Shown one piece after another: positions 12,950 through 24,625 of a stretch of 24,625 nt of DNA (positions are counted from its first letter, which is position 1; each line of letters begins with the position of its first letter). This stretch comes from a virus. Lineage: Duplodnaviria > Heunggongvirae > Uroviricota > Caudoviricetes. The DNA lies in IMG/VR virus record IMGVR_UViG_2534681649_000014. One strand, 5' to 3'. Made by a program: the position numbers and the translations under genes. The notes under the pieces were generated by a model. It was not told where the DNA came from. It made no database searches and saw nothing but the letters and a program-made list of their open reading frames with translations.

Positions 12950-12970
12950 TGGTGCGAAGGCCGGACTCAA
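12950..12970 (-). other. tRNA-Leu (leuX-like) 3-prime end remnant, a putative att direct repeat
   Basis: The minus strand reads …TTTGAGTCCGGCCTTCGCACCA, which matches the 3-prime acceptor/T-arm end of tRNA-Leu(CAA) leuX as I recall it (…GTTCGAGTCCGGCCTTCGGCACCA) with a 1-nt deletion and 1 mismatch. No D-arm or anticodon arm is present upstream, so this is a partial copy and not a tRNA gene. Confidence 0.55.
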
Positions 12971-13164
12971 ATATCAAAATAAGTTAATGATAAAAAACAA
13001 ATAATAAAACACAACAATGAAATATGCCCCCTTTTGTGCCCCCACTGTTTTTCTGACCAATCTATTTTCAGCCCATCAATAAATCGGAAAGTTAAATAAT
13101 TTTTAATCAGTAAGTTTGGATCCGTAGCCCGGATCCAAACCAGTGCATCTTTTATCCACATAAA

Positions 13165-13460
13165 AAATTTTTTTTCGAAAGAACTGTTCACACTGTTCAC
13201 CATTTAATTTTCTCCTTTTATTTCAGAGTGATAGGTGGTGAATAATGGGTGAAGGGTGAACATTCGATTCTTCACCTCCGGCATTCTGCCGGTGTGACTC
13301 ATACCGGTGATTAATCCCCCGTACTGAAAATCGCACAGGGAGAAAAAAGTTTTTTTTGATTTGATTGTTCACACTGTTCACCTTTCATTTTTCTCTTTTA
13401 ATTTCAGTGTGATAACGGGTGAATATACGGTGAAGGGTGAACAGTGGATTGTTCACCTTC
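13165..13460. repeat. Iteron cluster: two ~105-bp direct repeat units, each with several TGTTCACC / GGTGAACA octamers (P4 crr-like)
   Basis: Unit 1 (~13168-13275) and unit 2 (~13356-13462) are clearly homologous (TTTTTT…GTTCACACTGTTCACC…TTTCAG(A/T)GTGATA…GGTGAAGGGTGAACA…TTCACC). They lie immediately 3-prime of the alpha gene. Confidence 0.6.
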
Positions 13461-13506
13461 GGGGGAGGTCGGGATAAAAAAGACCGGCAGATGCCGGTCA
13501 GGTGGG

Positions 13507-23305: not shown

Positions 23306-23322
23306 TCAAAGTGTTTAATACA

Positions 23323-23355
23323 GAAATAAACGCCTATATATTATAGGCGTTTATT
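23323..23355. terminator. Bidirectional rho-independent terminator between convergent cassette gene 3 and int
   Basis: Near-perfect palindrome AAATAAACGCCTATA-TAT-TATAGGCGTTTATTT with A/T runs on both sides. Confidence 0.55.
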
Positions 23356-23359
23356 TTCA

Positions 23360-24625
23360 CTATCGACTTTTGTTTATTTTAGCAAAATCATAAGGTGTTA
23401 TTGTTTTGCCCTTATTTGCTTGGAGATAATCAGCCCACCATTGAACCATCAATCGACGTTCATCCAAATGTTCAGAGGTGTGAATATAAGCAGCACGTAC
23501 ATTATTACGCTCTGAATGGCTCAACTGTCGTTCTATAGCATCTTCACTCCATAATCCGGACTCGCCCAACGCACCACGGGCCATCGTTCTAAACCCGTGC
23601 CCGCAAACTTCGGTTTTCGTGTCATAGCCCATCGCACGCAATGCGCTATTTACCGTGTTTTCGCTCATAACCTTAGTTGCGTCATGATCACCCGGAAAAA
23701 GCAGCTCTTTATCTCCACTAATCTGCTTTAACTGGTTTAGCAAAATCATCGCCTGCCGACTAAGCTGAACGATATGCTCCTCTTTCATCTTCATGCCACG
23801 GTACGAGTAACGCACACCTTTAATTTCTTCTCGTTTTGCAGGTACTCGCCAGAGAGATTTATCGAAGTCGAACTCATCCCAACGCGCGAAACGTAACTCA
23901 CTGGAACGCACAAAAGTTAGTAAGGAAAGCTCAACCGCGATCCGCGTCATTACACGGCCACGATATGCAGCAAGACGAGCAAGAAACTCAGGGAACCGGC
24001 TGGAGGGCAAAGCGGGGTAATGTCGCGCTTTGGTTGTCGATAGCGCACCGGCCATATCACTGGCTGGATTTGAGTCGATGTAATCGTTCTGTACTGCATA
24101 ACGCATAATAGCCGTGACACGCTGCTGAAGGCGCTGTGCAACGTCATGCTTACCACTGGCATCAACTTTTTTAATCGGGGCTAATAGGTGGCTAGTTTTG
24201 AGCTGACGGATGTCAGATGAACCAATATGAGGAAAGATATAAAGCTCAAGATAACGTAGAACGCGTGATCGGTGATCTTCACTCCAGCGCTTATTACTAG
24301 CATGCCATTCACGAGCGATAGTTTCGAAAGAATATGCCCCCGAATTCTCGGCCTGAGCTTCTTTCTGTTCGGCTTTTGGATCAATGCCCTGCGCTAACAG
24401 CTTTTTAGCTTGATCGCGCTTTGCTCTTGCCTGAGCAAGCGTCACAGTAGGCCAAACACCAAACGCGAGACGATCCTCTTTTTTGTCAGAGGGACGTCTG
24501 TATTTCATGCGCCAGTATTTGGAACCTTTGGCCGAAACCTCAAGATACAAACCACCACCATCGGCCATTTTGTAGGTTTTGTCTTTTGGCTTTGCGGTCT
24601 CGACCTGTCTGGCGTTGAGCTTCAT
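23360..24625 (-). CDS. int: P4-family tyrosine integrase of the P4-like satellite element (start codon at the last base of the window)
   Basis: 421 aa. N-terminus MKLNARQVETAKPKDKTYKMADGGGLYLEVSAKGSKYWRMKY and C-terminus …CGHGFRTMARG…VRAAYIH…, similar to but distinct from the integrase at 11481-12749. The tRNA target is expected just beyond the window. Confidence 0.9.
   Translation of the reverse strand: MKLNARQVETAKPKDKTYKMADGGGLYLEVSAKGSKYWRMKYRRPSDKKEDRLAFGVWPTVTLAQARAKRDQAKKLLAQGIDPKAEQKEAQAENSGAYSFETIAREWHASNKRWSEDHRSRVLRYLELYIFPHIGSSDIRQLKTSHLLAPIKKVDASGKHDVAQRLQQRVTAIMRYAVQNDYIDSNPASDMAGALSTTKARHYPALPSSRFPEFLARLAAYRGRVMTRIAVELSLLTFVRSSELRFARWDEFDFDKSLWRVPAKREEIKGVRYSYRGMKMKEEHIVQLSRQAMILLNQLKQISGDKELLFPGDHDATKVMSENTVNSALRAMGYDTKTEVCGHGFRTMARGALGESGLWSEDAIERQLSHSERNNVRAAYIHTSEHLDERRLMVQWWADYLQANKGKTITPYDFAKINKSR

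Follow-up and report, generated by a model that had tools for sequence, protein, structure and literature searches.

Does a stretch of viral DNA that reads gene by gene like phage P4 hold an intact satellite of that kind, and what does it carry in the slot between psu and int? Both questions are raised by positions 12950–24625 of the IMG/VR record IMGVR_UViG_2534681649_000014 (the window, below, is the whole stretch of 24,625 nucleotides (nt)), which a sequence-only reading had described as a near-complete P4-like satellite prophage with a cargo cassette. On sequence comparison, this region is very probably a Type A P4-like satellite, a close natural relative of P4, present as a prophage at leuX (tRNA-Leu) in tandem with a second island. 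P4 carries gop-beta-cII in the psu–int slot, whereas the element of the window has there a trio of genes for a RexA-like protein, a membrane protein with four transmembrane segments (4TM), and a protein of unknown function.

A megablast of positions 12950–24625 against phage records matches P4 (75% query cover, 96.9% identity). With the P4 reference (NC_001609 / X51522), blastn gives two blocks. Window 12950–20494 corresponds to P4 4078–11624 with 97.88% nucleotide identity over 7548 columns (156 substitutions and four one-base indels), and this block opens on base 1 of the annotated attP core and closes on the last base of linear P4, its right cohesive end. Window 23426–24625 corresponds to int of P4 (2715–3914) with 90.75% nucleotide identity. 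The 2.9 kb between the two blocks (20495–23425) are without counterpart in P4. P4-like satellites are defined by seven core components and include a Type A class (Moura de Sousa & Rocha 2021, PMC8628076). All seven are found here, namely alpha, sid, psu, delta, epsilon (Ash), alpA/vis, and a co-localised integrase, so the element belongs to Type A. The P4 core proteins are all full length and 97.6–100% identical to those of the reference (tblastn and pairwise alignment), and the alignment shows neither frameshift nor stop in alpha, sid, delta, psu, epsilon, and vis. We find no sequence evidence contrary to the identification as a P4-like satellite.

The leftward genes begin with alpha (13507..15840, minus strand), which encodes the primase-helicase and origin-binding replication protein (777 residues, 98.7% identical to P4, 11 substitutions). 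On the same strand follow ORF106 (open reading frame, ORF; 15855..16175, 106 residues, 100% identical), which we take, after its name in the P4 literature, to be the copy-number regulator cnr; ORF151 (16311..16766, 151 residues, one substitution); and epsilon (Ash), the helper-derepression protein (16759..17046, 95 residues, 98.9% identical, one substitution), with a GTG start as in P4. Next on that strand is the Icd-like kil/eta frame (17039..17638), with 199 residues as called by the Prokaryotic Genome Annotation Pipeline (PGAP) in relatives and a match to NCBIfam phage_ICD_like (E 1.2e-20); in its longer form (17039–17683) this frame has one residue different from P4, and it overlaps the immunity RNA. 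The last leftward gene of this group is vis (ORF88, AlpA family; 17635..17901), an excisionase and regulator of 88 residues (98.9% identical, one substitution).

On the plus strand there are sid, for the external scaffold that determines capsid size (18453..19187, 244 residues, 99.6% identical, one substitution); delta, for the zinc-finger late-gene activator of the Ogr/Delta type (19184..19684, 166 residues, 97.6% identical, four substitutions, which spare every zinc-finger Cys); and psu, for the polarity suppression and capsid decoration protein (19758..20330, 190 residues, 98.4% identical, three substitutions). The tyrosine integrase of the P4 family closes the element (int, 23360..24625, minus strand, 421 residues). 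Over residues 5–414 it shares 95.6% identity with P4 Int, and two residues set it apart from WP_001522431; its C-terminal tail diverges from P4, with the catalytic motifs HGFR and AAY(IH) kept upstream of the tail. The right end of the window is the ATG used by PGAP for the same 421-residue integrase in relatives. The int promoter, the arm sites on that side, the proximal attachment (att) core, and the tRNA gene lie beyond it, and the description of the prophage as near-complete is accurate because the window ends exactly at that codon.

As the sequence-only reading had it, the gene order is that of P4, with every item located at the place assigned to it, and the lengths it gave for alpha, ORF106, ORF151, epsilon, Vis, Sid, Delta, and Psu are those of P4. 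The alignment with P4 upholds the proposal as well (97.9% nucleotide identity across the core), and no disruption is visible in the core reading frames or in the catalytic motifs of the integrase. For the small ORFs of the left operon the agreement is partial: those of 106, 151, and 95 residues match P4, and a further ORF of ~66 residues was not individually identified. The likeness to P4 covers gene order, lengths, and cis elements (attP, crr, and alpha through to psu and cos), and it extends to the family of the integrase and to the att core of tRNA-Leu.

The cis replication region (crr) lies at 13162..13462 (plus strand) and consists of two 120-nt direct repeats (13162–13281 and 13343–13462) with 10 type-1 octamers; the repeats are also recovered independently. 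In the ori region (17957..18679, plus strand), six type-1 octamers are found at 18180–18283. All of these octamers (16/16) are letter-identical to P4, in agreement with the iterons that had been proposed for both places. Two Int arm-type repeats of attP, ATATGCCCCCTT and TTGTGCCCCCAC (13022..13045, minus strand), are identical to P4 4151–4174. On the 3′ side of alpha, a terminator-like hairpin, t-alpha (13476..13499, minus strand), aligns with P4 4604–4628 with an A-run one A shorter.

The CI immunity RNA is found at 17291..17378 (minus strand) as a match to the Rfam C4 antisense RNA (RF01695; 74.9 bits, E 3.3e-13), within a block (17200–17450) that is 100% identical to P4. In the left-operon leader (17486..17576, minus strand), there are the CI RNA target c4-a1b1 (RF03163, 49.5 bits, at 17524–17576) and an isrK-like terminator hairpin (RF01394, 69.7 bits). 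All three Rfam matches exceed the gathering thresholds. The isrK family is one of small RNAs from Salmonella islands, and its match (17486–17563) overlaps that of c4-a1b1; thus, both Rfam families describe the same P4-type leader.

From this near-identity and the P4 literature we infer the course that the life cycle would take, from mobilisation and the hijacking of a helper to excision. Immunity would come from the CI RNA, cut from the leader of the left operon and pairing with targets in the same transcript, with an early stop of transcription. Upon induction with a helper of the P2/186 type, epsilon would derepress the helper, and Delta and the helper Ogr would cross-activate late promoters. 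Replication by alpha would start from ori with crr, and Cnr would cap the copy number. Sid would force the capsid protein of the helper into a small capsid, which Psu would decorate; the helper terminase would cleave the cos of the satellite. Integration and excision at the 3′ end of tRNA-Leu would be carried out by Int with Vis.

The cargo stretch between the two blocks has 32–37% GC, against 50–63% in the core, and contains three genes on the same strand. Gene 1 (20728..21807, plus strand) encodes a RexA-like protein of 359 residues, matched by the PADLOC profile PDC-M18A (E 6.3e-39). Gene 2 (21811..22344, plus strand) encodes a small membrane protein of 177 residues, matched by PDC-M18B (E 3e-15), with four hydrophobic segments of ~20 residues in the hydropathy analysis; it is identical to WP_032149796. 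Gene 3 (22352..23305, plus strand) encodes 317 residues from the ATG at 22352, or 336 residues from the start used by PGAP (22295). The first of these starts is better spaced from a GAGGG motif than the ATG at 22295. The stop codon of gene 1 (TGA) is at 21805–21807 and gene 2 starts at most three bases further on; its first canonical start is the TTG at 21811, and PGAP in relatives begins it at the ATA at 21808 (178 residues). A scan of the cargo for promoters and terminators gave fewer promoter-like sites than shuffled sequences and is uninformative.

With both profiles matched in adjacent genes, genes 1 and 2 correspond to the PADLOC candidate PDC-M18; they have no match in Pfam or NCBIfam and fall only in PHROGs of unknown function. 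According to the Domainator paper, PDC-M18 is cluster 4 of the P4 hotspot, that is, system #4 of Rousset et al. (2022). In that work, the psu–int slot next to cos is a published defence hotspot. Its Table S1B gives 169 occurrences of system #4, with weak RexA homology for protein 1 and four transmembrane segments for protein 2, and remarks that it “might be a distant homolog of RexAB.” An “occasional” third protein in the same table is, bar one residue, gene 3 of the window. Table S1A lists repeatedly the trio WP_001100521, WP_032149796, and WP_024191949, from which the products of the window differ by 0–2 residues. The cassette is thus present in the psu–int slot, where the sequence-only reading had placed cargo, but it is not new: the occupants already catalogued for the P4 defence hotspot include it. 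With the representative of system #4, genes 1 and 2 share only 29% and 36% identity; therefore, on sequence, the cassette of the window is a divergent subtype of system #4, with gene 3 present in every copy of the subtype inspected. In the literature searched, PDC-M18 and the RexAB-like P4 system are found only as catalogue mentions, not with experimental validation. None of the newly named systems in a 2026 Nucleic Acids Research paper on P4/P2 hotspots fits the cassette, as compared by descriptions only.

By analogy, the preferred interpretation of the cassette is as a putative RexAB-type module for abortive infection or exclusion. The product of gene 1 has the RexA fold, and gene 2, directly downstream, provides a polytopic membrane partner, on topology only. 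In such a module, the membrane partner would be opened or activated by a sensor in the cytoplasm, and the lysogen would be shielded from competing phages, to the indirect benefit of satellite and helper. The resemblance to RexA and RexB of phage lambda has clear bounds. Gene 1 exceeds RexA by 80 residues and is without detectable sequence similarity to it, and gene 2 is like RexB in position and topology only. The cassette shares its architecture and one fold with RexAB, and it does not belong to that family at the level of sequence.

Several results count against the RexAB assignment. Gene 1 has no match to RexA (PF15969) or any other Pfam family at E <= 10, nor any match among PDB sequences (single sequences and profiles), and with hhalign its family aligns to the lambda RexA sequence with a probability of 0.65%. 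The BLASTP comparison of gene 2 with RexB (E 0.65) is not significant. Among the systems tested by Rousset et al. (2022), the “RexA + 4TM” construct pFR81, which is the two-gene representative of system #4 with its 29%/36% identity to the proteins of the window, was one of those that gave no protection against the panel of eight phages.

The strongest alternative concerns the unity of the cargo: genes 1 and 2 would be a RexAB-like pair, and gene 3 an independent, added module (defence, anti-defence, or toxin). This falls only a little short of an even prospect. The pair without gene 3 is found in Pantoea (there, too, at a P4-like hotspot), in Pseudomonas, and in most of the occurrences of system #4, and homologues ~50% identical to gene 3 are found in distant phyla without a RexAB-like neighbour. 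On the other hand, in Enterobacteriaceae the three genes travel together in the same order, and gene 3 starts a few bases past the end of gene 2 or overlaps it, depending on the start codon.

The distribution of gene 3 is wide. There are 552 homologues, which even in very distant bacteria (including Patescibacteria and Thermodesulfobacteriota) retain ~50% identity along the whole protein, and an alignment of 40 selected homologues has ~50 invariant columns. Among the invariant residues are H105, R116, E168, R225/Y226, the motif E260-N261...Y264-G-N-A, R297, and H300. Searches with gene 3 in Pfam (up to E <= 10), NCBIfam, PHROGs, PADLOC, and PDB sequences (single and profile) gave no match. Its structural model is confident and resembles no solved or viral structure convincingly, with no match in BFVD at E <= 0.001. 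The distant homologues (in a metagenome and in loci of Thermodesulfobacteriota) adjoin proteins with LexA_DNA_bind/Peptidase_S24 domains, one of them fused to a DNA methylase. Other neighbours are a 70-residue ORF, DUF2188, and pEK499_p136-like genes, in contexts of mobile elements; no RexAB-like pair is found beside them at the inspected loci. Tentatively, and with the odds rather against it, gene 3 could be a new stand-alone enzyme of anti-phage defence or counter-defence, or else a sensor or modulator that activates an otherwise silent RexAB-like pair.

The same satellite is found in Escherichia coli TO6 (NZ_LS992166; 96.0% identity over window 11565–24625) and in E. coli USDA-ARS-USMARC-50748 (NZ_CP104117; 98.8% identity over 12899–24625). 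In both, the cargo proteins differ from those of the window by 0–2 residues, the flanking islands are different, and the distal att form is that of the window; TO6 also has the same cos allele and the same patch in ori. The P4-like element of EC16 is related, and its cargo is different. The Delta changes C72G/G73S occur in the TO6 and EC16 alleles as well. In TO6, tRNA-Leu is found 163 nt past int and is followed by ahr, yjgR, and lptG; the order int, tRNA-Leu, ahr, with the same 163 nt past int, is seen in EC16. In USMARC-50748, the satellite is followed by ~31 nt of the tRNA-Leu 3′ end (locus positions 13395–13425) and then by another integrase; ARAGORN detects no tRNA in that stretch after the integrase.

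Apart from the cargo and the last ~25 residues of Int, the element differs from P4 at three cis sites, and each of these differences weighs against full functionality. The first is the distal att core (12950..12968, minus strand), a remnant of the tRNA-Leu (leuX) 3′ end as had been proposed for the left boundary. The core reads TGGTGC-GAAGGCCGGACTC. It matches the 20-bp attP core of P4, which is the tRNA-Leu 3′ end in reverse complement, at 19/20 bases, one C being missing. The second is in ori, where a patch (17950–18200) is only 82% identical to P4 amid a core that is ~99% identical. There, the position of the three type-2 decamers of P4 (18047–18076) is taken by unrelated sequence. The TGT-N12-ACA dyad upstream of vis is kept; from what is known of P2/P4 late promoters, it is presumably the Delta/Ogr site of the late-left promoter. 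The third is cos (20440..20522, plus strand). At the site predicted from sequence, the cohesive-end 19-mer GGCGTGGCGGGGAGAGCAT (20495–20513) matches P2/P4 at 16/19 bases and differs at three positions.

None of these three alleles is peculiar to the window. The 19-nt distal core recurs in TO6, EC16, and USMARC-50748, each with different outer flanks; in TO6 and USMARC-50748, all 20 bp are present in the tRNA-proximal core. With the shorter core in several flanking contexts, it is therefore not private damage; from their sequences, the attP core of these elements may have 19 bp, and the crossover would then lie on one side of the base that is missing. For the ori patch, identity is 95.6% with TO6 and 82.5% with EC16; common to the former and absent from the latter, the patch is an allele circulating among P4-like elements. 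The cos 19-mer matches the 186 type at 18/19 bases (in Escherichia vB_EcoM-613R3, Yersinia MDG94-186, and Klebsiella RCIP0057), and the nine bases on its 3′ side likewise follow the 186/Eganvirus type. The same cos allele is present in TO6 and in a P4-like element from Klebsiella that Rousset et al. cloned; in EC16, with its different cargo, cos is of the P2/P4 type. Judged by sequence, the 186-type allele may affect which helpers package the element.

A second alternative takes those three sites together as signs of decay: the region would be a cryptic, immobilised P4-like remnant, retained by the host as the carrier of a defence cassette and incapable of excision, replication, or packaging. 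The short distal core, the loss of the type-2 decamers, and a cos that is not of the P2/P4 type would all fit, as would the position in a tandem array beside an island ridden with insertion sequences (IS) and the USMARC-50748 copy, which is followed only by a short tRNA fragment and another integrase. This alternative is nevertheless quite unlikely. All coding sequences and type-1 iterons are intact and 98–100% identical to a functional satellite, and the three apparent defects recur across flanking contexts and genera, a pattern more in keeping with circulating alleles than with private decay. The cassette itself is found in P4-like elements of Escherichia, Enterobacter, and Klebsiella, which implies ongoing exchange. 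A defective element is thus rated unlikely because the same att, ori, and cos alleles occur in relatives elsewhere, and an apparently intact satellite remains the preferred reading.

That the region is laboratory phage P4 itself, as a lysogen or a contamination, deserves practically no credence: a core 97.9% identical to the reference and several proteins identical or one residue off would favour it, but there are 156 substitutions in that core, int is 9% diverged at the nucleotide level, the cos allele is different, and closer matches (98.8%) exist in wild E. coli genomes. The replacement of the cargo, with gop-beta-cII absent and a different cassette in its place, rules it out.

Of 5426 complete E. 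coli genomes, 7 contain the full cargo (>=99% in five, 89% in two); by contrast, 904 have matches to the conserved query flanks. Owing to differences in the neighbouring island, coverage of the whole window reaches 80% in none of the complete genomes. The same trio is present in the psu–int slot of divergent P4-like elements of Enterobacter and Klebsiella. In one such element of Klebsiella pneumoniae, the gene for the membrane protein is called with 59 residues (locus 5459–5638) and may be truncated.

The satellite is an ordinary and well-described element, and what the sequence-only reading found in it was already known. A large share of E. coli genomes harbour P4-like satellites, whose psu–int slot is a recognised reservoir of anti-phage systems; therefore, the copy of the window adds nothing conceptually new. 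Its value is modest and lies in three points. It is a clean and apparently intact example of the three-gene variant of system #4 (PDC-M18). Its cos core, nearer to the 186 type than to the P2 type (18 vs. 16 of 19), could bear on the helpers that mobilise it. Finally, gene 3 represents a widespread family that lacks an assigned fold or function.

To the left of the satellite, two elements are stacked at one tRNA site, in a tandem array as in EC16 and TO6. The window contains no further copy of the att core, and ARAGORN finds no tRNA gene in it, as expected because only a tRNA remnant lies in the window. A second integrase of the P4 family (11481–12827, minus strand, 448 residues, 57% identical to P4 Int) starts 122 nt to the left of the att core, at the head of a separate island that contains IS66, IS3, and IS1 sequences; the ORFs at 9167–9949 and 10677–11117 are without family. 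In the left island (1–11117), a type I restriction–modification operon (2849–9042) is made of hsdR (2849–6265), hsdM (6329–7963), and hsdS (7960–9042).

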